Shown: positions 42,285 through 55,567, numbered from the stretch's first letter. The stretch is 64,000 nt of DNA from an uncultured Verrucomicrobiota bacterium (GCA_964490935.1 CAZBEO010000002.1:12804-76803); one strand, 5' to 3'. The notes: generated from the letters alone by a model not told the origin. Numbers and translations: made by a program.

Positions 42285-42348
42285 CACAACAGCGTACCCG
42301 CTGTGGTTGACTAACAGGATGGAGGGCCAAAGCCCGACAGCCTGTTAG
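42285..42348 (+). repeat. 97-bp family element (partial copy)
   Basis: CACAACAGCGTACCCGCTGTGGTTGACTAACAGGATGGAGGGCCAAAGCCCGACAGCCTGTTAG; contains the response regulator stop. Confidence 0.85.
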
Positions 42349-42989
42349 CGATGTTCGTCCACCCAAAGAACCGCCTGCTGCATGAGTTGAGAGGCGGTAT
42401 CGGTGTTGAGTTTCTTTTTGATTCTCACCCGATGCGCCTCAATGGTCTTCACGCTCAACTCCAGGCGGTCGGCAATCTGCTGCGTGGAAAGCCCCTGTCC
42501 GATCAGTTCAAATACCTGCAACTCGCGGTCGCTCAGCGTTTCCACGCCGGAAAGTTCTTTCTGCCCACCAATGTACTGCTGAAGCATGCGCGACTGAACC
42601 TCGCGGCTCACAAAAAGCTCTCCCTTCAAGACCGTGCGGAGGCCATCCAGCACCGCTTCATCGGCCTGTTCTTTCATGATGTAGCCATTGGCACCGGCGC
42701 GCAGCGCCCGCTCGGCATACAGAGCCTCGTCGTGCATGGAGAGCACCAGAACCGGAAAGGCCCAGCTCCGCTCGCGTATGGCCTTGATCAAATCGAGGCC
42801 GCTTCCGCCCTTCAGCGAAAGATCAATCACCGCCACGTCCGGCAACCGCTCTGTCATGGCAGCCAGCGCCTCGGCCTCATCACCTGCACCGCCGACAACC
42901 TCCAAATCCTCTTCCTGATCGATAATCAGACCTAGTCCCTGACGTACGATCGAATGATCATCCACAATAAAAACCGTTGCCTTCTTCAT
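42345..42989 (-). CDS. NarL/FixJ family response regulator (REC-LuxR HTH)
   Basis: IVDDH, VIDLSL, LSMH, GYIMK, LSDRELQVF, KTIEAHR. Confidence 0.95.
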   Translation of the reverse strand: MKKATVFIVDDHSIVRQGLGLIIDQEEDLEVVGGAGDEAEALAAMTERLPDVAVIDLSLKGGSGLDLIKAIRERSWAFPVLVLSMHDEALYAERALRAGANGYIMKEQADEAVLDGLRTVLKGELFVSREVQSRMLQQYIGGQKELSGVETLSDRELQVFELIGQGLSTQQIADRLELSVKTIEAHRVRIKKKLNTDTASQLMQQAVLWVDEHR

Positions 42990-44770
42990 GCCCAGCCTTC
43001 TTCCTGTTTCCTGTTCGGTTCCACATCATCCAGTGTGCAAACCACCATGACGCCTCCGTCCGGAAGCGACTCCACCGACAGTTGTCCACCCGCCGTTTCC
43101 GCCCGATACTGCATAATCTTCAAGCCGAGTCCCTGTCCGGCCTGCCGGTCTTCTTCACTCGGCAGGCCCGAGCCGTCATCACTGATCTTCAGTAGTCGCG
43201 TGCCCAGCTCCACCCGTATATTTTTTGCGCCTGCATGGCGCACGGCATTGTTCAGCGCTTCCTGGGCGATATGATAAAGATTCACCACCTGATCGTTGTT
43301 CAGGCCTTCGAGACGACCCCACCATTCAAAAGCGCAGGATATGCCGGAGGAAGATTGTATTTCCGCTGTGAGTTTTTCGAGTGCTTCAGGCAGCGCTTCC
43401 ACATCCAATTCGACGGGTGTGAGGCCGTGCGCCATGCGCCGCGTGGCCACGCGTGCCTCTTTGAGCAGCTCGACAATCTGTCGCGCCTGCCCGGCCACTT
43501 CTTCCTGCTTCGTTTGGTCCAGACGCTTGGCCAACGCGCTGGTGAGGAGGCCGATTCCGGTCAACTGCTGGCCGAGGGAATCGTGCAAATCCCGTCCAAC
43601 CCGCTTTTTTTCCTGGGTGCTGATGTCGATAATCTGTCGCTGCAATTCGTGACGTTGTCTGATTTCCCGCTCGAGTTCCCGGTTAGCCTGTTCCAATTCG
43701 CCGGTACGCTCCGCCACGAGACGACGTATGCGTGCGGTGCGTCCGGCCAGTTGCGCGATTTGTCCGGCCACCACCAGCGTGAGCAGCAATCCACCCGCGA
43801 GATAGATCCAAGGCATACGCGTTTTCCGTTGTTCGATAAACGCCCGCGACGCCCGGCAAACCACCGTCCAGTCCAGTCCGTTGATCTGCAGCGCCCGCTC
43901 CACCCGCAGCGAGCCGGTTGACTCCACGCCTTTCGATTCGGGCAGATAAAGGCGGATGGCGTCTTGTCCTTTCCCCTCGAAGACTTCCACGTCCAGCCCT
44001 TCCGGCGTGTGATTGCGCAAAATGCGATCGATCACTTCAGCGGGGTAGATCACCGCAAAGGCATAACCGAAGGCGTACCCTCCGCCCGCCCCGCCGTTGT
44101 GTAGGCCTGGCATCAAGCTCTGGATGGGTGAAAAAACGAGACGTCCCGTGCCCCGTCTTCCGCGCACGACACCGCCCGCACGCCCACGCCCCTGCTCAAC
44201 CGCCTCGATCATAGCGCGTGCATTCTCCGCATCCGAATGCAGATCGTAGCCAACTGGTATATCCTGAAACGCATTTGGCGCAAGATAGGAAACGGGGAAA
44301 TAGAGTTCCTGCTGACTGGCCGGAACCCAGCCGGCATCCTTCCATTCCACGAGACTGAAATCCGGACGTACCTGACGGCGCATCGCCGCCTCATAAGGCG
44401 CACGGTCTGGCCCGTCGATACGCGGAGCCAATCCGAAGACGCCCAGAATCCGTTGCTGATAGAGCATGCCCTTCTGAACGAATTCGTTGAATACATCCGC
44501 ACTGACATCCGGCGAAAGACTGTGCAGATGCCCCACGGATTCCAGCACATCGAAATACTGATTCAATTCGCGGCGTATGCTCACGATCACATTGTCCGAT
44601 TCCACTCGGAACGCGACGGCCAGCCCCGCCTCTTCACTGCGTTGCCTCGTGTTCCAGAGATAGAAACTCCCCGCGAGGCCGATCAAGGCAACAAACACGG
44701 CCAACCAGTAGCCGCCCCGGTACGCACCGGCTTTTTGTCCATCTGGATGTGGCTCGTTCTTGTTTTCCAT
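42986..44770 (-). CDS. CHASE-domain sensor histidine kinase (HisKA_3/NarX type)
   Basis: Two TM segments around a CHASE region, DLHDSLGQQL, QEALNNAVRHA, DDGSG, GLGLKIM. Confidence 0.9.
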   Translation of the reverse strand: MENKNEPHPDGQKAGAYRGGYWLAVFVALIGLAGSFYLWNTRQRSEEAGLAVAFRVESDNVIVSIRRELNQYFDVLESVGHLHSLSPDVSADVFNEFVQKGMLYQQRILGVFGLAPRIDGPDRAPYEAAMRRQVRPDFSLVEWKDAGWVPASQQELYFPVSYLAPNAFQDIPVGYDLHSDAENARAMIEAVEQGRGRAGGVVRGRRGTGRLVFSPIQSLMPGLHNGGAGGGYAFGYAFAVIYPAEVIDRILRNHTPEGLDVEVFEGKGQDAIRLYLPESKGVESTGSLRVERALQINGLDWTVVCRASRAFIEQRKTRMPWIYLAGGLLLTLVVAGQIAQLAGRTARIRRLVAERTGELEQANRELEREIRQRHELQRQIIDISTQEKKRVGRDLHDSLGQQLTGIGLLTSALAKRLDQTKQEEVAGQARQIVELLKEARVATRRMAHGLTPVELDVEALPEALEKLTAEIQSSSGISCAFEWWGRLEGLNNDQVVNLYHIAQEALNNAVRHAGAKNIRVELGTRLLKISDDGSGLPSEEDRQAGQGLGLKIMQYRAETAGGQLSVESLPDGGVMVVCTLDDVEPNRKQEEGWA

Positions 44771-44772
44771 CG

Positions 44773-46395
44773 TCAGACATTCCGCTGTGTTCGTATCATT
44801 CGTAAAAAGCGATCCAGCAACCCGGATTTTCCGAGCGGGCGTGGAGAGATTCCATTCGCATCCTTCATCCGTTCCAGTTCCGACTGGAGGTCCGCCGTCC
44901 GTTCGGCGGCCAACTCGGCAAGTCGTTCGGGTATTTCCGGCTTCATGCCAAGCAAGAAGGTGAAGGCGTCGGCATCCAGCTCGATTAATTCGCATTCCTC
45001 CACAACCCGCACGGTGGCGGTTCGAGGCAACCCGGTGAGCAAACTCATTTCGCCCAGCAGCGCACCCGGCTTGATTTCAAAGACATGGCGACTCGCTGTG
45101 CTGTCACGGCTTTCCACCTCACCGCTCAGCAAACCGCGCACCACAATGTAACAACGGTCGCCCTCTTCACGCTGATGAAACAACACCTCGCCCGTGGTAT
45201 AAAAGACGCGGCGCGCATGACAGGCCAACGCCACATACTCCTCACGGCCCAGCAGGCCGGCCCCATTCCCTCCGGTCAGCAGATCCCTGGAAAACCGGCT
45301 CCGCTCCAGATCATCCGCCATACGAAGAACCTCTTTTTCCTCCGGCGGTTCCCGACGCTGACGATATACCACGGCCATAAAATCATTCAGCAGCTTGTCG
45401 CTCATCGGGAAGGGAATTTCGATGCCCTGGCGCTTGAAGCGGTACCAAATCATTCGCCCCACTTCTCCATCCAATTCCTTGCGATCGTAATATCGCCGGG
45501 TCCAATAGCGCACCATATAATTGATGCCGAAATCTTTGTATTCCGTGATGAAGGCACGCGGCGCGGGTTCGTCCAACACATCGGGCACCGCCTTGGCCGC
45601 TTCAATCAATTCCCGAATCACGTCGCCCGGCGCATCGGAATAACTCGCACCCACCTCAAAGCGGTGCCGACGCAAGGTGTTCGGCCACGACATGTGATTC
45701 AGCACGGCCGAAGAAACGGTACTGTTCGGCACAATCATCACATGCCCGTCATGCGTCCTAAGCCGGGTTTCCCGCCAGTTTGTTTCAATCACTTCGCCTT
45801 CGATTTCCTGCACCCGAATCCAGTCGCCTGGCACCAGCGAACGCACCAGATGCAGCGACATCCCGCCGAGCAGATTGCCCAGCACCCCCTGCAAGGCAAA
45901 ACCGATGACCGCCGTAACCAGCGCCGTCGAGGCCAGCAGCGGTGCAATATCAACCCCCGCCACTTCCTTGAGCACCAGAAAAGCCGCCAGCAGCGCAATC
46001 ACCGTACGCACAATGGAAACAAGGAGAGATGGAACCGGAAACGCCTTTCCGCGAAACCAGAAAAAGGACACGCCGATTCCTTCCAACGCACGCATCCCCA
46101 GGATCACCCACCAAAAAGTCTGCCAAGCCTGGAAGTGCAGACGGCAATGCTCCATCCACGCGGCGCACGCCCCTGGAAGATGAGCGGCCAGCCAAGCCGC
46201 AGCGTAAGAAAAGACCAGCACCAAGGCTGGCAGCGACACCGGATACAAAAAACCCCGAAACCAAACTTTCTTCCGAACATTCGCAGAGAGCCGTTCGCCT
46301 GATTTCAAACGTATCCGACGCGAAATAAATAGTGCCAGCGAAACCAGCACAATCGCCAGCGCGCCCTCCACCAGATAAAACGTCATACTATTCAT
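44773..46395 (-). CDS. MscS-family channel with a C-terminal cyclic-nucleotide-binding domain
   Basis: GFALQGVLGN, PGDWI, NWRET, VPNS, PFP; CNBD with LFHQREEGD and GEMSLLTGLPRTATV. Confidence 0.92.
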   Translation of the reverse strand: MNSMTFYLVEGALAIVLVSLALFISRRIRLKSGERLSANVRKKVWFRGFLYPVSLPALVLVFSYAAAWLAAHLPGACAAWMEHCRLHFQAWQTFWWVILGMRALEGIGVSFFWFRGKAFPVPSLLVSIVRTVIALLAAFLVLKEVAGVDIAPLLASTALVTAVIGFALQGVLGNLLGGMSLHLVRSLVPGDWIRVQEIEGEVIETNWRETRLRTHDGHVMIVPNSTVSSAVLNHMSWPNTLRRHRFEVGASYSDAPGDVIRELIEAAKAVPDVLDEPAPRAFITEYKDFGINYMVRYWTRRYYDRKELDGEVGRMIWYRFKRQGIEIPFPMSDKLLNDFMAVVYRQRREPPEEKEVLRMADDLERSRFSRDLLTGGNGAGLLGREEYVALACHARRVFYTTGEVLFHQREEGDRCYIVVRGLLSGEVESRDSTASRHVFEIKPGALLGEMSLLTGLPRTATVRVVEECELIELDADAFTFLLGMKPEIPERLAELAAERTADLQSELERMKDANGISPRPLGKSGLLDRFLRMIRTQRNV

Positions 46396-47249
46396 CGCGT
46401 CACCTTCTCCGCTCCTTCATACCGTTCGCCCTGCCGACCCAACACCGCCCCCGTGCATTCCTTCTGCATCTGCCGTTCCAATTCGATCAGCGCGGCATCA
46501 TCCAATTCCGGGGCATGATGAATGATCACGAGCTGCTGAATGCCCGTCTCTTTCGCAATCGCCACCCCATCCTGCCAAGTGCTGTGTCCCCAGTTCACAT
46601 GCGCCGGATAATTCTCCGGCGTAAAATGTCCATCAAAGGCCATCCAGTTTACGGGATTCGGCGTATGGCACAAATGCAAAAAGGCCTCGCGCTCCTCCCT
46701 TGTGGAAAGCGACCACTCGATGTCGGTCGCGACGAGCAGGCTGTGCCCCGTCGCTGGCTCATCCACGCGGTACGCCACGCACCCGCCCGGATGATGCACC
46801 GGACACCAGCGAATCTCCAATCCGCCACACCTCAGCACGCCATCCCGAGAATACGCCCCCAACGCCTCGAACGTCAGTTCGCCACGTAACATTTCAATTT
46901 GTTGAGGCCAAAATGGGGCCGCCATGATTTGTGCGAAGACCTCCTTCACGTCCTGGCCGTTCAATGACGGCCCGACAATGCGCAGCGGAGCACCCGGACG
47001 GTATATCCTCGGAAACGCCGGAAATCCCGCAAGATGATCCAGATGATAATGTGTCATCAACGCCAGCATCGGTTTATCGGATTGGCTCAGGCGGGCGCGC
47101 ATGCCATTGAGACCCGATCCGAAATCGATCAGGACCTCTTCGCCACCGCATCCTTCAATATAGAAGCAGGTGGTATCGCCTCCGAACTCGCGAAAGGCCG
47201 GATTCGTTACCACCGCCGTACCACGCACGCCGCCCAATGTGATTTGCAT
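46392..47249 (-). CDS. MBL-fold metallo-hydrolase (putative cyclic nucleotide phosphodiesterase)
   Basis: LGGVRGT, FGGDTTC, DFGSG, THYHLDH, HHPGG, WGHS, HHAP. Confidence 0.85.
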   Translation of the reverse strand: MQITLGGVRGTAVVTNPAFREFGGDTTCFYIEGCGGEEVLIDFGSGLNGMRARLSQSDKPMLALMTHYHLDHLAGFPAFPRIYRPGAPLRIVGPSLNGQDVKEVFAQIMAAPFWPQQIEMLRGELTFEALGAYSRDGVLRCGGLEIRWCPVHHPGGCVAYRVDEPATGHSLLVATDIEWSLSTREEREAFLHLCHTPNPVNWMAFDGHFTPENYPAHVNWGHSTWQDGVAIAKETGIQQLVIIHHAPELDDAALIELERQMQKECTGAVLGRQGERYEGAEKVTR

Positions 47250-49376
47250 TTACTTCTCCGTCAGATTCCACACACCGTCCCAATCGGCACCGTTCAATGC
47301 CTCGCGGCAGCGCGCTAGGTACTTCGCGGCTAGCGGATCTTTTTCCAATGATTGGAACTTTTCCACCGCATTTTTCCAATCATTGGAAAAAACGAACCCG
47401 AGCCCTTCTTCGAAGGTCCGCACCCAGTCCGGGCGCTCGTTCGCATCCAGCGTCAGTAGTTCATACACGCTCACCGGGGACTTGCGCCCGACCACCCGGA
47501 TTTTTCCGATTTGCCGCGCACCGAGTTGCCCCTCCACCGCCGACCAAGTTTCACCGGAAACCATACTATACGTTCCGAAGGCTTTGTTCGCGCCCTCGAG
47601 GCGCGAGGCCAAGTTGGCCGCATCGCCCAGTACCGTATAATCGAAACGCTCTTTCGATCCCATATTGCCCACCACCACCTCGCCCGTATGCATACCGATC
47701 CGCGCGTAGAGTGGCGAGCCGTAGCGCTCCGCGAGATCATCGCGCAGCTCTTCGAGCCGCTTGGCGCAACGCAGCGCCGCGCGGCATCCACGCAGGGCGT
47801 GATCGTGCTGATCCATCGGCGCATTCCAAAAAGCGATAATGGCATCGCCCTCGTATTTATCCAGCGTGCCGCCCTCATCAAAAATAATATCGGTCATTTC
47901 CGAAAGATACTCATTCAGAAAGGAGGTCAGTTCCTGTGGGTTCATCCGTTCTGAAATCGTGGAAAATCCCTGGATGTCGGAAAAGAAAATCGTGAGCACC
48001 TTGCGCTCGCCGCCGAGCTTCAAGCGCCCCGGATCGTTGAGAATATTTTCAATCACATCACGACTCAAATAGTGCTGAAAGGCGCGCTTGATAAACTGTT
48101 TCTGTCGCCCCTCCGTAGCATAATTCACCAGCACCGCCGAGGTCAGCGCCAACAGCAGCGACAGCACCTGCACCACCAGCGGATACCAGAAACCCAGCGG
48201 ATAAAACAGCAACGCCACCCCCACGCCGGGAAGCAGAAACAACACGTAAAAAAGCGCACTGCGCCACGCCGACCGACTGAACAAGCCCGCGAGCGCCGCC
48301 AGCAGGGAAAGCAACAGCACCACCAACACCACTGCATGGCGCGGAACATCCCGCAGCGCATCCGCATCGAGCAGATTGTCGAGTAGCGTGGCGTGAATGA
48401 ACACACCCGGGGAAACGCGCGAAACCGGTGTGGCCCGCTGATCCATCAACCCCGGCGCGCTGAATCCAAACAGGACGTGACAATCCTTAAACACCTTTGG
48501 ATCCAGTTCAGCCTCCATCCCCGCCTGCAAATTCATTTCCGACAGAATCACCGCCGCCGCACGAATTCGCTCATAGGGATCATCCACTCCCCGGTAATGC
48601 AGCAGCACATCGCCATGGGCATCCAGCGGAACGCTCACCGGCCCGAGTTTCAGGCGTTGTGCCTCCAGGCTGGTTTCCCACGCATCCGGATGCGTGAGCA
48701 GATACGCCGCCACCCCGAGCGAAGGCACGTAGCGCCCGTCAAACCGATTCAGCGGAGAGGCGCGACGGAACACACCGTCGGAATCCGGCATATCGCGTAC
48801 ATTGCCCAACACTGCGGCGTTGGTGGCCACTTCGGGAATCGGAAACGTGGCTCGACTCTTGTTCAAACGTCGCTCCCGCCGGGGCGGAAGGTCCGACACC
48901 TGCACCTTCCAGTCTTGTTGCAAAATGTCCGTCGGCCAGGTCTCGCTCCCGCCCGAACGATCACCGAGAAACACCGCCGCCACCAAGTTGGTGGTGGTCC
49001 GCATCGCCTCTCCAAGCGCTTCGTCGTCGCTCACCGAATAGGCCGAAGGCTCGGTATAGAGTACGTCAAACGACACGCTTGCCGCGCCAGCCCGCTGCAT
49101 GAATTGAAGCAGTGGAACATACATCTCACGCGGCCAGGGCCACGACACGCTTAATTCTTTCGCCGCCCAATCCAGCGACGCCTGATCCAGCAGCACCAAT
49201 TTAATTTTCGCCGCCGACTCCGAGTTGCGCGCGAACAGTCGTACACGCCACGCCCAGGTCACATTCTCGACCGCATCCAGCGCCCCGAAAAACCAGAGCG
49301 ACAGACTGATCAGCGCCGCACCGCCTCCGCAGAGCACCCCGTACAGCCACTTTTTTTTGGTCTCTGCCTTCATCAT
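47250..49376 (-). CDS. CHASE2-domain class III adenylate cyclase
   Basis: FSDIQGFSTISE, DKYEGDAI, GMHTGEVVVGN, DYTVLGDAANLASRLE; CHASE2 with DGVFRR and PGVFIHA. Confidence 0.93.
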   Translation of the reverse strand: MMKAETKKKWLYGVLCGGGAALISLSLWFFGALDAVENVTWAWRVRLFARNSESAAKIKLVLLDQASLDWAAKELSVSWPWPREMYVPLLQFMQRAGAASVSFDVLYTEPSAYSVSDDEALGEAMRTTTNLVAAVFLGDRSGGSETWPTDILQQDWKVQVSDLPPRRERRLNKSRATFPIPEVATNAAVLGNVRDMPDSDGVFRRASPLNRFDGRYVPSLGVAAYLLTHPDAWETSLEAQRLKLGPVSVPLDAHGDVLLHYRGVDDPYERIRAAAVILSEMNLQAGMEAELDPKVFKDCHVLFGFSAPGLMDQRATPVSRVSPGVFIHATLLDNLLDADALRDVPRHAVVLVVLLLSLLAALAGLFSRSAWRSALFYVLFLLPGVGVALLFYPLGFWYPLVVQVLSLLLALTSAVLVNYATEGRQKQFIKRAFQHYLSRDVIENILNDPGRLKLGGERKVLTIFFSDIQGFSTISERMNPQELTSFLNEYLSEMTDIIFDEGGTLDKYEGDAIIAFWNAPMDQHDHALRGCRAALRCAKRLEELRDDLAERYGSPLYARIGMHTGEVVVGNMGSKERFDYTVLGDAANLASRLEGANKAFGTYSMVSGETWSAVEGQLGARQIGKIRVVGRKSPVSVYELLTLDANERPDWVRTFEEGLGFVFSNDWKNAVEKFQSLEKDPLAAKYLARCREALNGADWDGVWNLTEK
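47343..47388. repeat. Two TTCCAATNATTGGAA palindromes inside the cyclase 3' end
   Basis: 47343-47357 TTCCAATGATTGGAA and 47374-47388 TTCCAATCATTGGAA; encode FSNDWK and FQSLEK. Confidence 0.85.
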
Positions 49377-49393
49377 GGTGTTTCAATCGTGAT

Positions 49394-50314
49394 TTATCGC
49401 AGGCTGGCCGTAGCCGTCTCAAAGCGTTGCTGCCGCTCTTTCGGTTCAGGACGCGGCTGCACCTTGATCTGTGAGCGCACTGCTTCGATCCGGTCGTCCG
49501 GCGAGGGATGCGTCTTGGCAAATCCCGGGCTATCGCCGTGAATCTGCTTTTTCATCTCCGAGAGCATGCCAATCAGCGCATTCGGATCATACCCCACGGA
49601 CTCCATAATTTGAACGGCGGCTGAATCCGCCTGATATTCCTGCCGCCGCGAATAGCCGTTCACCACCAGTGTTTGCGTGACATCGTTAATCGACCCTTCA
49701 AATGCCTTGGTCACTTCCGCGAGCTGCCCGCCGCCGAGTCCCTTCGCACTTTCGGTGGCCAGAATGGTCAGGGCCGAGGTTAGGCGGCTCTTGCTGATGG
49801 CGCGCAGGCCATCCTCATTCTGCACATGGCCCACCTCATGCGCCAACACCGACGCCAGTTCATCCTCCGTTTTGCAGCATTTCAACAAGCCACGCGAAAC
49901 CAGAATCAGGCCGCCAGGCGCAGCAAAGGCATTGACCTCATCGGCATCCAGCACCAGAAAATGATATCCGCCGAAGGTTTCCGGTTTGCCGGATGCACGC
50001 GAGAGGGTCTGCCCGAGCACGTTGACATAATGCGTGAGCACCCGGTCGTCATAGGGTTTGTACTGCCCAAGCAGCGACGCCGCCACCGAACGCCCGATGT
50101 AATACTCCTGCTCCGGCGTGATGTCCTCGAAGGTTTTCCCCACTGCACTGACGGATTTATTGATCGACTTGGCATCTTCCTCCTTGATCGCACCCGATGC
50201 CACCGCAATGGAGGTTCCCATTTCCGTCACTTGATTCAGCGTTTCACACGCCGTGAAGAGCAGTAACGAAAACGTCGTCAATCCAAACAAAATGATGGGT
50301 ATGTGCTTTTTCAC
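49394..50314 (-). CDS. M48 family metalloprotease, probable lipoprotein
   Basis: FTAC lipobox, VNAFAAPGG, LAHEVGH, YSRRQEYQAD, THPSPDDRI. Confidence 0.92.
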   Translation of the reverse strand: MKKHIPIILFGLTTFSLLLFTACETLNQVTEMGTSIAVASGAIKEEDAKSINKSVSAVGKTFEDITPEQEYYIGRSVAASLLGQYKPYDDRVLTHYVNVLGQTLSRASGKPETFGGYHFLVLDADEVNAFAAPGGLILVSRGLLKCCKTEDELASVLAHEVGHVQNEDGLRAISKSRLTSALTILATESAKGLGGGQLAEVTKAFEGSINDVTQTLVVNGYSRRQEYQADSAAVQIMESVGYDPNALIGMLSEMKKQIHGDSPGFAKTHPSPDDRIEAVRSQIKVQPRPEPKERQQRFETATASLR

Positions 50315-50796
50315 ATCGCACCTCCTTTGCCTGCCGCGACACTGCCTTCCGTGAGAAACTGCCGCATCTCCTGCTCGGGAATTACAATTTTTTCCATGAC
50401 ATCCACTTCGGTGAAATCCACTTCCTTGTTTTGGGCCTTGTATTCGGCTTCCACTTCCTTGCTGAAGCCCTTGCCCGCCAGCGCCAGTTCATCGCCCGAG
50501 GCCACCGTACCGACCTGCCCGCCACCCGCCACCGGAGTGATTTTTTTCCGGGTCAATGCCGAGGTGTGCACCCACCCTTGAACCCCGCCCGCGCCCGCCT
50601 GACTCCATCCGGATTGCTCATCGCTGACCACTACCTGATCTCCGTATGAAAGTTTCGCCACGGTCGCACCCAGAAAAGAGGGTTTGTCACGCAGCACAGT
50701 TTCCTTCACCTGCACGCTCATCGACTGCCCAGACGCATAAACGCCGCACACCGATAGCGCCAGCACACTCGCCGAAACCATCCACTTATTCATCAC
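50311..50796 (-). CDS. Exported SH3-domain protein
   Basis: Signal peptide; LRDKPSFLG...LSYGDQV...GWVH SH3b pattern; ALAGKGF tail. Confidence 0.8.
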   Translation of the reverse strand: MMNKWMVSASVLALSVCGVYASGQSMSVQVKETVLRDKPSFLGATVAKLSYGDQVVVSDEQSGWSQAGAGGVQGWVHTSALTRKKITPVAGGGQVGTVASGDELALAGKGFSKEVEAEYKAQNKEVDFTEVDVMEKIVIPEQEMRQFLTEGSVAAGKGGAM

Positions 50797-51734
50797 TGCT
50801 CCTCCTTTGTTTCAGGAACTTCTTGTTTAATCAACTCGAACAGGGTTTTGGCACTGCGCTCCAGTTCCGCGTCCCCGCTCTTCTTTGCCACCTGCAAGCT
50901 CTGCTCAATCGCCTTCAGCGCGTCCACATAGCGATGCTGGCCATAAAAAACCAACGCCGCACGCAGGGCGTACTCCCCGGCCTCGTTCCAAACGCCCGCT
51001 TGACCATAGGCTGTTGCTGCCTGGCTCATGGCATCGGCCATGTCTCCATAGTCACCCGCCGTTTTATAAAGTGTCACCGCCTTCGCATAATCATCGGCGG
51101 CATCGCGGTTCATCCCCTTGGAAGAGCCCTGGTCGGCACGAAGCCGATAACAACCCGCGCTCAGGCGAGCATTTCCATTCAGGTTTTTTTTCATCAATTC
51201 GTTCAGAATCCGTTCACTCTCTTCGGCCCCGCCCAACTTCCACTCAAGTTGCGCACGGCAGAGAGCGAGCTGCTCGCGTACGCCCGACGCATCGCTCCCA
51301 GGTGCCGACTCCGCGCGCTCCAGCGCCTGCAGCGCCTCCGCATTCCGACCCAGCGCCGAAAGAATTTTTGCCTCCAGCAATCCCATGTCCCAACCTACTG
51401 CACCGCCGTCTGATTGCACACACGCCATGCCCGAAACCAATACCTGTAGGGCCTTTTCATAATCGGCGTTCCGCGCCTGAATCAGAGCCAGATTGTACGC
51501 GGCATCTCCTGCCGAACGCGCATCACCAATTCCCAGGGCCCGCTGAAAGGCGGCTTCATATTCCGCCCCCGCGGTATCGCCTCGCCCAGCCGCATACGCC
51601 TTCCCGCCCCGCTCCATCAGGGTCAGGTAGCGCTCATCGCCCGCTGGTCGCGTCGTCCCGCATCCGCAGAGCATCAGTCCGAAGGCCCATAACATCAATC
51701 CGCTCAACCACTGTTTTGCCTGTTCGCTCTTCAT
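50793..51734 (-). CDS. TPR-repeat lipoprotein
   Basis: LCGC lipobox; repeated Ala-rich TPR helices. Confidence 0.75.
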   Translation of the reverse strand: MKSEQAKQWLSGLMLWAFGLMLCGCGTTRPAGDERYLTLMERGGKAYAAGRGDTAGAEYEAAFQRALGIGDARSAGDAAYNLALIQARNADYEKALQVLVSGMACVQSDGGAVGWDMGLLEAKILSALGRNAEALQALERAESAPGSDASGVREQLALCRAQLEWKLGGAEESERILNELMKKNLNGNARLSAGCYRLRADQGSSKGMNRDAADDYAKAVTLYKTAGDYGDMADAMSQAATAYGQAGVWNEAGEYALRAALVFYGQHRYVDALKAIEQSLQVAKKSGDAELERSAKTLFELIKQEVPETKEEQ

Positions 51735-52666
51735 TGCACTGCTCCCGTGGAATAGTCGTTGAATTCGTCCGGGGCGAGTCGCTCCGGCGCGGCAATTTTC
51801 TCCATACTGCCTCGAAGCAGCCAATGGCGCTGAATGCCCTCGATCAGCTTGCGCGATTCTTCGATGGTATCCGTGGTTTCCCGCATCAGTTGCGGCAGTT
51901 GTTCCTGCGCGGTGGCATTGGCCGTCGCGGTGATGGCCTTCACATCCTCACCAACCTTCACCAAATCATTCGCGAGTTTCTGCAACGAACCAACAGTCTC
52001 CTGCAACTGCGCCGACATTTCCGGATCGCGCAGCAGCAGGCCCGCCGGGCCTTTCCCCGCCTCGAGGTCCGTCATAATGCGTTGCACCGAGAGGAGCGAC
52101 TGCTGTATCGGGCCTGCCGGATTGTTCACATTCGTTGCCACCGCTTCATACGCGGCCAAGATCGCCTCCACCTTCTCCACAAACGGAATCACGGCATCCT
52201 GCACCTGCTGCATGATTTCCTGAACCATCTCGGTCAAATCTTCATCCTTGCGACACGGGATGTACACTTTGCTTTCCGTGGGCACTTGATTGGTTCCGCG
52301 CGTGATCTCGATGAAGGAATCTCCCGCCACCGCAAAACGTTTTTTGATGATCGCCTCGGAATCGGTGCGGATGTAATTCACAAAATTTCCGGTGATAAGA
52401 ATTTTGCCTTCCATGCTGCCGTCTTCGTTAATGATAATGCGTTCGAGCCGTCCTGCCTGTGTTTCCATGATTTCCACATCCGCGCCCTTTTTCAGACCTG
52501 CGCTGCCACGTGTCGGAAAGCGGATATACACCTCGTGCCGGGGCACAAACCATTCCTGTGCATTGCCAATCAGTACCACGGCGGCAATCAATACCACCAC
52601 AATAAGCAGGACAAACGAGCCCACAATTTCATTCACATATCTGAACTTGAACGGTTTTTTACTCAT
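51731..52666 (-). CDS. MlaD/MCE family protein
   Basis: IVGSFV TM segment, GLKKGADV, IRTDSEA, GDSFIEI, coiled coil, HWLLRG. Confidence 0.88.
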   Translation of the reverse strand: MSKKPFKFRYVNEIVGSFVLLIVVVLIAAVVLIGNAQEWFVPRHEVYIRFPTRGSAGLKKGADVEIMETQAGRLERIIINEDGSMEGKILITGNFVNYIRTDSEAIIKKRFAVAGDSFIEITRGTNQVPTESKVYIPCRKDEDLTEMVQEIMQQVQDAVIPFVEKVEAILAAYEAVATNVNNPAGPIQQSLLSVQRIMTDLEAGKGPAGLLLRDPEMSAQLQETVGSLQKLANDLVKVGEDVKAITATANATAQEQLPQLMRETTDTIEESRKLIEGIQRHWLLRGSMEKIAAPERLAPDEFNDYSTGAVQ

Positions 52667-53352
52667 ACCCTACTCCTGATTTCCTTCAGCATGCCGTCTT
52701 CATAACAAAAACAGACCGCATCGTTTCCAAAAAGTTCCCGCTCACGCGCATCAGCCGTAAGCCATATCAGGGCCAACCCCGCGTCGACCCGTTTACGCAG
52801 AATGCGTATGAACCGCTCCTGCGCCTCCGCGTGCATCGAATGCAGAGCGCTTTCCGCCAACAGCAGCTTCGGCTCATCCAACAGAGCCCGCACACACTGA
52901 CTGATCTTCAGCACCTCCCTCGAATAATGAGGCGGGCGTTTGCCCGGCAGTTCATCGAGTCCCAATTCCAACGCCAGCGCACGCGCCTCCTCATAGATAT
53001 CCTCATCCGTCCGGCGCGTAGCGTGGCGCACTCGCAACGTGATGTTTTCATCCATATCCAGATTACTCAGCCAAGGGAACAGCATTCCATAAATTCGGCC
53101 CATCCCTGCGCGCCGAGCCGCCTGCTCATCCGGCGGCATGGCCTGCCAATTCGTACCGCCGTACAGCACCTCTCCCGAGTCCGGCACAGCCAGCCCCTGC
53201 GCCACATCAAACAGGGGAAGATTCACCTGCCGTGTATCCGCCAGAACAAGCATCATCTCGCCGGGATTCAGCGCGAACGAAACGTCCGTCAACCCGCCGT
53301 CGTACTCCTCCGGCGAAATCGTTACCTTGTTGAATTCAAGCAAAGCGTTCAT
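52663..53352 (-). CDS. MlaF-like ABC ATPase fold with degenerate catalytic motifs
   Basis: ABC scaffold (PDSGEVL, ENITL, RALLDEPKLLL), but no Walker A and no LSGGQ. Confidence 0.75.
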   Translation of the reverse strand: MNALLEFNKVTISPEEYDGGLTDVSFALNPGEMMLVLADTRQVNLPLFDVAQGLAVPDSGEVLYGGTNWQAMPPDEQAARRAGMGRIYGMLFPWLSNLDMDENITLRVRHATRRTDEDIYEEARALALELGLDELPGKRPPHYSREVLKISQCVRALLDEPKLLLAESALHSMHAEAQERFIRILRKRVDAGLALIWLTADARERELFGNDAVCFCYEDGMLKEIRSRV

Positions 53353-53355
53353 ACG

Positions 53356-54144
53356 TCACACATACACCATCACCGAAACCACTAAAAAAGCCACAAAAAC
53401 AGCCATCAACGAGCGGACCTGACCCAGCGTGGTCGCCTGCGGAATTTCCGCCAGATCGTGACTGACCGAAAGCCCAGCCTCACAGCAGATCACCCCCATC
53501 AGAATGCCCGGCACCAGGGTTTTTCCCAGAATCACCAACACATCCACGGGTTCTAACGCCTGTGCCACCTGCTGAATGAACTGCATCGGCCCCGCCTGCC
53601 CCGAGCCCGCCAGCACCGCCGTTAAAAAACCAGTGACCAAACTCACCGTAATAAAAACAATCGTCAGACAAAAAACAGAAATGGCCAAACCAATCGCACG
53701 CGGAAGGACTAAATAAATAAATGGGTCCACCCCCTGCGAATCCAGCAGACGAATCTGCTGGCTGACCCGCATACTCGCTAATTCCGACGCCACCGCCGTG
53801 CCGCTGCGTCCCAACACAATCAGATTCGTCAGCAGCGGTGCGAGCTCACGCACCACCAACGCCACCAGGATTGGACCCAGCATACGGGTCTGCCCAAGGC
53901 GCGTCAGCCAAACCTGCGCCTGCATCACCACCGTGATACCGCAGATCATACCGGAAAGTGCGATGAACCGTGTGGCATCCACCCCCGTAAACAGCACCTG
54001 CCGGGCCAGTACATTGCGTACCGTGCCCGGCCAATAGCGCGGATGAACCGCCGCCCAGACCACCGCGCCCGCCAAACTCAGGACGTGACTGATCTGCCGG
54101 GCACTGCCCGTCACCCGCGCTCCGATGCCACCAAGAATTTTCAC
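53356..54144 (-). CDS. MlaE family ABC permease
   Basis: VRELAPLL, GRSGTAVASELASMR, PRAIG, QATT. Confidence 0.9.
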   Translation of the reverse strand: MKILGGIGARVTGSARQISHVLSLAGAVVWAAVHPRYWPGTVRNVLARQVLFTGVDATRFIALSGMICGITVVMQAQVWLTRLGQTRMLGPILVALVVRELAPLLTNLIVLGRSGTAVASELASMRVSQQIRLLDSQGVDPFIYLVLPRAIGLAISVFCLTIVFITVSLVTGFLTAVLAGSGQAGPMQFIQQVAQALEPVDVLVILGKTLVPGILMGVICCEAGLSVSHDLAEIPQATTLGQVRSLMAVFVAFLVVSVMVYV

Positions 54145-54152
54145 AAATCGGT

Positions 54153-54719
54153 TCAGAACGTAACCTCCGGCGCCTGCTCTGCGCCCTGCTGCGCTTCAAA
54201 CGGCGTCCGCTTTTCCAACCCCATAAAGCCTGCCAGAATCACATTCGGGAACGAGCGGATGGACGTATTGTACGACTGCACCGCCTCGTTGTAGCGCTGC
54301 CGTTCCACCGAGATACGATTTTCCGTACCCGCCAATTCATCCTGAAGCGCGATGAAATTCTGATTGGCCTTCAAGTCCGGATAATTTTCCATCACCACCA
54401 TCAGTTTGCCAAGCGCCCCATCCAGCAGCGAGCCGGCCTGTGCTTTCTGATTCTGTGTTTTTGCTTCGCCCCACTGGCTGCGCAGGCGCGTCACTTCTTC
54501 CAGCAATTCTTTTTCATGCGAAGCATAGCCCTTGACCGTATTCACCAGATTTGGAATCAGATCAAAGCGCCGCTGCAACACCGTTTCCACATTCGCCCAG
54601 GCCTTGTTGCAGTTTTCATCCTGCCCGATCAGCCCGTTATACATACCCATCAGCGAGGACCCAATGATCAACCCAATCACCACCACCACACCACCTGCAA
54701 TCAAACATCCTTTACCCAT
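54153..54719 (-). CDS. lemA: LemA family protein
   Basis: LQRRFDLIPNLVNTVKGYASHE, ENYPDLKANQNF, TENRISVERQRYN. Confidence 0.96.
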   Translation of the reverse strand: MGKGCLIAGGVVVVIGLIIGSSLMGMYNGLIGQDENCNKAWANVETVLQRRFDLIPNLVNTVKGYASHEKELLEEVTRLRSQWGEAKTQNQKAQAGSLLDGALGKLMVVMENYPDLKANQNFIALQDELAGTENRISVERQRYNEAVQSYNTSIRSFPNVILAGFMGLEKRTPFEAQQGAEQAPEVTF

Positions 54720-54775: not shown

Positions 54776-55567
54776 TCACCAACTTCCGCTTGCGCCGCCG
54801 CCCCCTGACCTGCCACCCCCACCGCCACTGAATCCCGAAGAACCCGACGACCCGCCGCTGCGGCTACCACCCGATGAGGAGCTGCCGCCCCCCGAAGCCC
54901 CGCTCGTGCGCCCTCCGGCTTTATTGCCCACCCGAATAATCACCACAATCAGGCCCACGAAAAAAAGAACGATCAGGAGTTTCGCCACGCCGGATATGGG
55001 CCGAACCTCGATCGGCACCCCGACATCGGCTTCCGTACCTTCCGCATCCGTTCCACCGATGGCCCGAATGAAGGCATCCGCGGCATCGTTCAGCCCCTTG
55101 GCATAATTTCCCTCGCGAAATGCCGGCGCCAGATACTCATCGCGAATCCGTCCGCACGCCGCATCAGGCAGTACTCCTTCCAGACCGTATCCCACTTCGA
55201 TGCGCATCTTGCGGTCTTCAATGGCCGCCAACACCAGCAGGCCATTGTCTTTATCGGCATCGCCCAGCTCCCATTTTGCAAACAGCTTGTTACCAAAATC
55301 ATCAATCTGGCCGCCCTGCAACGAAGAGATAAGCACCACGGCCACCTCGTTGCCGCTCTCCAGCCGATAGTCGGTCAACTTCTTTTCGAGTGCGGCACGG
55401 TCCTCTGCGGAAAGGACGCCCGCCTGGTCCGTGACCAGCGCCTCATACTGAAGAGAATCAAGAAGCCGGTCAAAGTCCGTTTGATTCTGAGCCGACGCCT
55501 GCCAGGCCAACGCCCAAACCGCCAGCACCCCGATCAATAAGCCCATTCGTCCAATGGATACACGCAT
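54776..55567 (-). CDS. TPM domain (YgcG-like) membrane protein with a Gly/Ser-rich tail
   Basis: VTDQAGVL, DNGLLVL, RIEVGYGLEGVLPD, FSGGGGGRSGGGGASGSW. Confidence 0.92.
   Translation of the reverse strand: MRVSIGRMGLLIGVLAVWALAWQASAQNQTDFDRLLDSLQYEALVTDQAGVLSAEDRAALEKKLTDYRLESGNEVAVVLISSLQGGQIDDFGNKLFAKWELGDADKDNGLLVLAAIEDRKMRIEVGYGLEGVLPDAACGRIRDEYLAPAFREGNYAKGLNDAADAFIRAIGGTDAEGTEADVGVPIEVRPISGVAKLLIVLFFVGLIVVIIRVGNKAGGRTSGASGGGSSSSGGSRSGGSSGSSGFSGGGGGRSGGGGASGSW

Follow-up and report, generated by a model that had tools for sequence, protein, structure and literature searches.

What do CHASE2 sensor domains respond to, and what do bacterial channels that join an MscS pore to a cyclic nucleotide-binding domain (CNBD), the bCNG channels, do for the cell? 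Both questions are raised by five genes at 44773-50796 of a 64,000-nucleotide stretch of DNA (the window) from an uncultured Verrucomicrobiota bacterium (GCA_964490935.1, CAZBEO010000002.1:12804-76803). In the order of transcription, these genes encode a secreted SH3-domain protein, an M48 metalloprotease lipoprotein, a CHASE2 cyclase, an MBL-fold hydrolase and an MscS-CNBD channel. The SH3-M48-cyclase triad is a conserved core, and the hydrolase, a putative phosphodiesterase, and the channel are its lineage-enriched output. We lean towards the view that the five genes form a co-transcribed cyclic AMP (cAMP) signalling circuit with an input from the cell envelope and an output at a membrane channel. 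The signals recognised by CHASE2 domains are described as unknown in the Pfam text quoted in PMC5192318.

The five-gene cluster

All five open reading frames (ORFs) are on the minus strand, and their limits match the interval exactly (Table 1). The junctions between successive genes are -4, +17, 0 and -4 bp, the start codon of the MBL gene abutting the stop codon of the cyclase without a gap, and all Pfam matches of the five proteins exceed their gathering scores. No second cyclase, CNBD, MscS, SH3, M48 or MBL gene of these types was found in the 64-kb window. An earlier reading made from the sequence alone (the sequence-only reading) had described a self-contained module of five abutting genes. 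The ORF limits, Pfam matches and junctions agree on the five genes, and the motifs that it quoted are all found: DKYEGD and NLASR in the cyclase (residues 506-511 and 588-592), THYHLDH in the MBL protein (66-72) and GEMSLLTGLPRTA in the channel (448-460). The term self-contained has to be given up, because the genes are embedded in an 11-gene array and the composition of the module varies between lineages.

Conservation of the gene neighbourhood

Conservation was surveyed from four starting points. A cyclase-centred survey collected 80 genome loci at 44-52% identity from Verrucomicrobiota, Kiritimatiellia, Lentisphaerota, Planctomycetota, Fibrobacterota, Desulfobacterota, Acidobacteriota and Methylococcales, of which 72 were evaluable upstream of the cyclase and 55 downstream. 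The M48 gene lay less than 400 bp upstream of the cyclase, with the SH3 gene beyond it, in 64 of the 72 loci, and this arrangement spanned at least eight phylum-level groups. Downstream, the MBL gene was found in 27 of the 55 loci, the channel gene in 26 and both in 22. These two genes follow the cyclase mainly in Planctomycetota, Verrucomicrobiota and relatives: both were present in all 12 Planctomycetota, and in Verrucomicrobiota the MBL gene was present in 11 of 13 loci and the channel gene in 7 of 13. An SH3-centred survey comprised 80 metagenome loci gathered via the LAGKGF motif of the SH3 protein. The SH3 gene was followed by the M48 gene in every evaluable case (62/62), by a CHASE2 domain in 35/44 and by a cyclase catalytic domain in 30/37. 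Likewise, MBL-centred look-ups placed the MBL gene immediately after a CHASE2 cyclase with the SH3-M48 pair upstream (4/4), and channel-centred look-ups placed the channel gene downstream of the cyclase (4/4), in two cases with the MBL gene and in two without it. The sequence-only reading had staked itself on conservation of the neighbourhood, which was recovered from all four starting points. Chance adjacency is ruled out by this recurrence across phyla.

The triad is abundant, with at least 580 confirmed matches in each of two scans and 840 SH3-family representatives at E<=1e-10. It ranges over bacteria of the PVC group (Planctomycetota, Verrucomicrobiota and relatives), Fibrobacterota, Desulfobacterota, Acidobacteriota and methanotrophic Gammaproteobacteria, and it persists although its flanks are entirely different from one lineage to another. 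Divergent MscS-CNBD paralogues of 28-30% identity accompany it in other gene orders, either divergently upstream of the SH3 gene (loci L008, L090, L094 and L096) or right after the cyclase without an MBL gene (L070, L049, L001 and L018). In a Methylococcaceae locus (L056, 6050-8287, plus strand), the cyclase is followed by a gene whose product combines two CNBDs with an NTE P-loop domain and a patatin phospholipase domain; judged from its domains, this product appears to be a different cAMP-binding output of the same triad. Because the flanks differ, the paralogues are reordered and other CNBD effectors substitute for the channel, selection seems to act on the gene set itself rather than the synteny being merely inherited.

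Individual loci show further variation. In L049 (11916-13537, Desulfobacterota), the MscS ORF and the CNBD ORF are separate, reflecting either a frameshift or a genuine split. A Kiritimatiellia locus (L029, 12978-14108, minus strand) has a CNBD-DUF1003 membrane protein after the MBL gene, and L165 (6916-8702) has CorA and an Ion_trans-type channel instead of the MscS-CNBD channel. In L169 (1709-3831), a HepT/MNT-type toxin-antitoxin pair and small ORFs lie between the M48 and cyclase genes, the rest of the module being intact. In some loci from Desulfobacterota and Methylobacter, the gene right behind the cyclase is for a peptidoglycan enzyme, either a YkuD L,D-transpeptidase or a class A penicillin-binding protein (PBP1) (L036, 9306-11108; L061, 12102-12626; L043, 12474-14678).

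The cyclase

The topology of the cyclase, predicted from hydropathy and an AlphaFold model (pLDDT 87), starts with a transmembrane (TM) helix at residues 11-29, followed by a periplasmic CHASE2 domain (~residues 30-340), three further TM helices (341-359, 373-391 and 399-417), the catalytic domain and a helical tail of ~60 residues. Foldseek matches to the whole model were dominated by the catalytic domain. What does this domain make? The metal-binding aspartates D467 and D511, together with K507, T581, N588 and R592, are invariant in 26 homologues. The nearest cyclase homologue is 94% identical and comes from a Kiritimatiellae metagenome-assembled genome. D467, D511, N588 and R592 align with their counterparts in CyaB and CyaC, and K507/T581 align with the K/T pair of P. 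aeruginosa CyaB and S. platensis CyaC, whereas the guanylate cyclase Cya2 has E/G. By sequence, the protein is a class IIIb adenylate cyclase with a full catalytic set, which bears out the sequence-only reading of an enzyme making an adenine-type cyclic nucleotide. Since all catalytic residues of a homodimeric class IIIb adenylate cyclase are present, the product should be cAMP. Guanylate or pyrimidine cyclase identity is ruled out by the K507/T581 pair. The C-terminal tail (residues ~645-708; 47250-47450, minus strand) is itself conserved, with three helices and invariant W699, L705 and K708 (WDGVWNLTEK).

The channel

The channel has about 4-5 TM helices and, to judge from its sequence, bCNG architecture, in which a single polypeptide carries an MscS pore and cage and, at its C-terminus, a CNBD. 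Structures of MscS match it over residues 122-333, and those of the SthK, PKA and MloK1 CNBDs over residues 385-504. The cassette GE...PRTA, which the sequence-only reading had called intact, is intact and conserved among orthologues; the pattern GEMSL..PR[TSM]A holds in 25 of the 26 orthologues that cover the phosphate-binding cassette (PBC), L010 having ARQA. The same combination of pore, cage and CNBD characterises the bCNG channels of Caldwell 2010 and Malcolm 2012, as cited in PMC13591265. Published members, as that review presents them, are mostly cyanobacterial and are orphan genes without a known role or structure (PMC13591265). Channels of the window type, by contrast, lie in a conserved operon with a presumed cyclase and phosphodiesterase, and their hosts are the PVC group, Fibrobacterota and some Desulfobacterota.

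Would cAMP open such a channel? Its MscS pore and cage are canonical and conserved, the window is of salt-lake origin, and one published bCNG member is tension-gated according to a title cited in PMC13591265. These points suggest, tentatively, that the channel stays a tension-gated osmotic safety valve, which cAMP tunes or inhibits rather than opens, and that the module sets the readiness for osmotic shock. We regard this as possible, though doubtful: overexpressed bCNG channels gave E. coli no protection against hypo-osmotic shock (PMC13591265). It would in any case refine the cAMP circuit and not replace the module by something else.

The MBL-fold hydrolase

Does the module encode its own phosphodiesterase? 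In the MBL protein, H67, H69, D71, H72, H153, D176, H244 and H245 are invariant, all metal ligands included. The top Foldseek matches of its AlphaFold2 model (pLDDT 94) were RNase Z, YhfI (6kns), BA1088 (1zkp), PhnP, yeast PDE1 and phage Apyc1, and a profile search agrees. The THYHLDH motif is an instance of [T/S]HxHxDH, a signature proposed for Rv1339, B. subtilis YhfI and C. glutamicum CpdA, which are atypical class-II phosphodiesterases of the PF12706 family (PMC9293780) and relatives of phage Apyc1 (PMC9117128). Proven cAMP phosphodiesterases are known from the phosphodiesterase branch of the MBL fold (PMC9293780, PMC9117128), and YhfI strongly prefers cAMP/cGMP (PMC9117128). Motif, binuclear site and PF12706 fold are thus common to these enzymes and the window protein, and YhfI and BA1088 are among its top structural matches. 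However, its identity to the atypical class-II enzymes is only 17-19%, it falls below the equivalog threshold, and it has invariants of its own, for example P112, W114, P115 and W220-G-H-S-x-W225. In other words, the MBL protein is a distinct family. Structure and motif place it in the phosphodiesterase branch, in keeping with the sequence-only reading of a fold able to degrade cyclic nucleotides, and cAMP phosphodiesterase is the best reading of its putative role, one that we hold to be likely.

The same evidence leaves some room for an RNase Z/ElaC-like nuclease or another phosphoesterase, whose place after the cyclase would be incidental. RNase Z/ElaC proteins are among the best profile and Foldseek matches, and source annotations of relatives read 'ribonuclease BN' or 'phosphoribosyl 1,2-cyclic phosphodiesterase'. 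The protein is below every NCBIfam equivalog cut-off, those of RNase Z included (46.9 vs 292.95 for TIGR02651 and 48 vs 252 for NF000801). The secondary structure of the 285-residue model, on the other hand, has no evident long protruding segment like the tRNA-binding arm of RNase Z, as judged without superposing the structures, and the protein carries the THxHLDH signature of the atypical class-II phosphodiesterases (PMC9293780). An incidental place sits poorly with the position of the gene, which begins 0-14 bp past the cyclase in most loci, among them all 14 from Planctomycetota and 13 of 15 from Verrucomicrobiota, and with its co-occurrence with the channel gene (both in 22 loci, MBL only in 5, channel only in 4, neither in 24). 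Orthologues also gave weak matches to the Apyc1 family. A nuclease or other phosphoesterase is therefore unlikely, though it deserves more credit than the two alternatives discussed below.

The SH3 protein and the M48 protease

The SH3 protein consists of a Sec signal peptide, an SH3b domain (residues 30-85), a Gly-rich linker and a conserved C-terminal region, and it represents a stand-alone family of ~160 residues. Long matches to the family align to the SH3 part of the query only, in several stretches. Within the motif ELALAGKGF..VE, residues E103, L106, A107, K109, G110, F111, V115 and E116 are invariant columns of the family alignment, conservation is seen in 66 orthologues, and the motif by itself retrieved at least 583 confirmed metagenome relatives. 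This conservation suggests that the motif is a candidate recognition or cleavage site.

The M48 protein has a lipobox (LFTAC, Cys23) and the active-site motifs HEVGH (159-163), E226xxAD and THP (268-270), whose columns are conserved in 66 orthologues. Among solved structures, 3c37 and the E. coli BepA protease domain come nearest to it. The protein ends after this domain and is therefore of BepA type without the C-terminal TPR domain; it scores 107 against a cut-off of 570 for the BepA equivalog NF052400, with profile positions 34-262 of 483 matched. The Sec signal peptide of the SH3 protein and the lipoprotein signal of the M48 protein indicate that both are exported and share the periplasm with the CHASE2 domain. 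Three of the module components are thus extracytoplasmic or have extracytoplasmic domains. Conserved adjacency and this shared location are the only two grounds on which we infer that the SH3-M48 pair controls the cyclase.

A proposed circuit and its alternatives

How might the parts work together? The M48 protease and its dedicated SH3 partner would set the activity of the CHASE2 cyclase through a signal, protein or peptide in nature, which they produce, eliminate or display. The signal might arise by cleavage of the SH3 protein at or near the invariant ELALAGKGF motif, or it might be a turnover product or peptides of envelope proteins released in a BepA-like manner. cAMP from the cyclase would then bind the channel CNBD and shift its gating, a fast non-transcriptional change in ion or osmolyte flux, until the MBL enzyme hydrolyses cAMP and ends the pulse. 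Hydrolysis, gating and control by SH3/M48 are putative steps. A proteinaceous, partner-dependent CHASE2 input is plausible because it has precedents in NsrA with CyaD1/D2/K (PMC13001267) and in a LysM-FecR protein with a CHASE2 kinase (PMC5192318). As to the stimulus, we can only speculate that it is envelope integrity or stress, or osmotic state, because genes for Mla-type lipid transport at the outer membrane and for a TPR lipoprotein lie upstream in this lineage, peptidoglycan genes lie near the cyclase in some loci and the window comes from a salt lake.

Several observations weigh against the circuit. The output genes are largely missing from Desulfobacterota (MBL 0/17, channel 3/17) and were found in none of the four Methylococcales loci (MBL 0/4, channel 0/4). 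The link within the triad is not obligate, as 9 of 44 SH3-M48 pairs have no adjacent CHASE2 cyclase and 8 of 72 cyclases have no adjacent SH3-M48 pair, the M48 gene being 2.8-3.5 kb upstream in two of these. Fusions of SH3 with M48, SH3 with CHASE2 or M48 with CHASE2 were not found in the best 150 of 1441 SH3 relatives. The MBL protein scores 32.1 against a cut-off of 400 for the cNMP-phosphodiesterase equivalog NF041851, and its sequence profile puts it marginally closer to RNase Z than to YhfI. According to a review of September 2026, no physiological role has been established for bCNG channels and structural data on them are lacking (PMC13591265). The window sequence is present only in four salt-lake DNA metagenome runs, and in no RNA run. 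Finally, the correlations between pairwise-identity matrices (SH3-M48 0.80, CHASE2-SH3 0.76, CHASE2-M48 0.73, MBL-channel 0.96) fit inheritance as a unit and, being uncorrected for shared phylogeny, are weak evidence for it.

Could the SH3-M48 pair be an autonomous envelope quality-control unit, that is, a BepA-like protease and its adaptor, with a cyclase that is co-expressed or co-located and responds to another cue? No other unit of the module is as tight as the pair (62/62), its protease domain is nearest to BepA, and a separate TPR lipoprotein gene and Mla genes lie upstream. The lack of fusions among the best 150 relatives points the same way, as do the nine pairs without a downstream CHASE2, eight of which have no cyclase match at all; the sampled neighbours are unrelated genes. 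However, the cyclase follows the pair in ~80-90% of loci, in at least eight phylum-level groups and whatever the flanks. CHASE2 distances track those of SH3 (r 0.76) and M48 (0.73) better than those of the catalytic domain in the same polypeptide (0.58), and other CHASE2 sensors need envelope partners (PMC5192318, PMC13001267). A pair acting on its own is thus rather improbable.

A Pycsar-like anti-phage system, in which infection triggers a cyclic nucleotide and a CNBD membrane effector kills the cell, is very hard to credit: although it shares the logic of a cyclase and a CNBD membrane protein, and the PADLOC PycC and Pyc-effector models match the cyclase and CNBD domains, these matches are domain-level only, the specificity pair K/T is of the purine/adenine type, the cyclase has an extracytoplasmic sensor domain and the module its own putative degrading enzyme, the surrounding genes have housekeeping functions (aro genes, cytidylate kinase, Mla) and form no defence island, and order and sequence are kept at ~50% identity across phyla, unlike the patchy spread of defence systems.

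Comparison with known systems

The S. meliloti CHASE2 cyclases CyaD1, CyaD2 and CyaK sense a protein signal via the outer-membrane protein NsrA (PMC13001267). They resemble the window system in combining CHASE2 with a class III cyclase, cAMP and an envelope accessory. Their accessory is a beta-barrel and their output the transcription factor Clr (PMC13001267), whereas the window module has SH3 and M48 accessories and a linked output channel and putative phosphodiesterase. The Burkholderia BiofilmReg operon encodes a response regulator, a LysM-FecR periplasmic protein and a CHASE2 histidine kinase (PMC5192318). Here too, a CHASE2 sensor gene adjoins that of a secreted protein with a domain class that typically binds peptidoglycan; the output, however, is a two-component kinase, the partner is LysM-FecR and not SH3, and there is no protease.

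E. coli BepA, an M48 protease with a TPR domain that acts in outer-membrane protein assembly and degradation, has a homologous protease domain with the HExxH, ExxAD and THP motifs in common with the window protein. LoiP and YcaL are M48 lipoproteins, like the window protein. Unlike BepA, the window protease is without a TPR domain, a separate TPR lipoprotein being encoded two genes upstream, and a dedicated SH3 protein always accompanies it, in most cases along with a cyclase. Synechocystis Cya2 (PDB 2w01), a guanylate cyclase of class III, is ~35% identical to the window cyclase in the catalytic domain, but its specificity residues are Glu/Gly instead of Lys/Thr and its product is cGMP. Full-length Cya2 carries a CHASE2 domain.

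Every part of the module is thus of a known kind: class III cyclase, CHASE2, MBL phosphodiesterase-like enzyme, bCNG channel and BepA-like M48 protease. Full-text literature searches returned no paper linking CHASE2 with an M48 protease or an SH3 partner, and none describing an SH3-M48-cyclase or a cyclase-phosphodiesterase-bCNG (MBL-MscS-CNBD) set. No description was found, either, that would contradict the remark of the sequence-only reading that no characterised system has the full set.

Genomic context

The cluster belongs to an array of 11 genes on the minus strand, bounded by MlaE (54144) and a response regulator (42345), in which neighbours are -4 to +17 bp apart; the whole is probably a single long operon. 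Scanning for promoters and terminators gave as many promoter-like sites as expected (6 vs 6.0) and did not reveal a clear boundary within the array. The LemA gene (54153-54719) and a TPM-domain gene (54776-55567) lie just upstream of it.

Table 1. Position and main attributes of the module genes, their parts and the other genes of the array. Pfam scores are given against their cut-offs.
Feature	Position	Strand	Remarks
MlaE permease	53356-54144	-	heads the tightly packed array
MlaF-position protein	52663-53352	-	without detectable ABC ATPase domain
MlaD	51731-52666	-	Mla gene set (51731-54144) translationally coupled to TPR gene
TPR lipoprotein	50793-51734	-	313 aa; overlaps SH3 gene by 4 bp; lineage-specific upstream partner
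Secreted SH3-domain protein	50311-50796	-	161 aa; SH3_3 29.2 vs 27; also SH3_4
SH3 protein motif ELALAGKGFSKEVE	50449-50490	-	family pattern E-[LVI]-[AS]-LAGKGF-xx-VE
M48 zinc-metalloprotease lipoprotein	49394-50314	-	306 aa; Peptidase_M48 123.8 vs 20.3
CHASE2 adenylate cyclase (predicted)	47250-49376	-	708 aa; CHASE2 159.5 vs 26.3; Guanylate_cyc 70.8 vs 21.9
CHASE2 domain (PF05226) of cyclase	48297-49313	-	Pfam span; between TM1 and three-helix TM bundle
Class IIIb catalytic domain of cyclase	47463-47996	-	
Cytoplasmic MBL-fold hydrolase	46392-47249	-	285 aa; Lactamase_B_2 (PF12706) 39.4 vs 27
MBL motif THYHLDH	47034-47054	-	residues 66-72; full binuclear metal site
MscS-family channel with C-terminal CNBD	44773-46395	-	540 aa; MS_channel_2nd 54.2; MS_channel_3rd 54.6; cNMP_binding 64.5 vs 27.5
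Channel pore helix ALQGVLGNLLGG	45862-45897	-	conserved in orthologues
Channel CNBD	44950-45207	-	
Channel PBC	45016-45054	-	G448, E449, R457, T458, A459
CHASE histidine kinase	42986-44770	-	CHASE, cytokinin-receptor-type sensor; HisKA_3; begins 2 bp past channel gene
NarL-type response regulator	42345-42989	-	pairs with CHASE histidine kinase

The TPR lipoprotein gene accompanies the module in Verrucomicrobiota and Kiritimatiellia loci. Verrucomicrobiota loci have MlaD upstream in 9 of 12 cases and Kiritimatiellia loci in 4 of 6, whereas none of the 11 Planctomycetota and 17 Desulfobacterota loci does. The protein at the MlaF position has no ABC_tran Pfam match; on inspection by eye, the Walker A, Walker B and signature motifs all seem degenerate. 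Relatives of 29-45% identity occupy the same position in Verrucomicrobiota and Kiritimatiellia, and at least some of them (L081, L165) score as ABC_tran. The set is possibly an Mla-like system whose ATPase subunit is inactive.

At the other end of the array, the histidine kinase and response regulator genes are probably co-transcribed with the module. They were rejected as part of it, because only the window and its 94%-identical relative (L166, 14607-17035) carry them, and the pair gave no tblastn match across the 80 genome loci.

Significance

The module links the CHASE2 input and the role of bCNG channels to defined partners: the SH3 and M48 proteins are candidates for the input, and the cyclase and putative phosphodiesterase are candidates for the supply of the channel ligand. 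This compact parts list makes two questions directly testable, namely what CHASE2 senses and what bCNG channels do, and the locus has every component for reconstitution. Given the abundance of the triad, a mechanism solved once would annotate thousands of genes. A bolder view, which is possible but for now no better than tentative, is that of a widespread and hitherto unrecognised envelope-surveillance pathway in which a BepA-like lipoprotein protease and its dedicated SH3 protein make or consume a CHASE2 ligand, and in which an MscS-type channel is gated directly by a cAMP pulse that a co-translated phosphodiesterase shapes. If true, it would be the first ligand-generating mechanism for CHASE2 and the first physiological role for bCNG channels, that of an osmotic or ionic valve operated by a second messenger. 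It would also exemplify bacterial cAMP acting directly on membrane transport and not via a CRP-type regulator.

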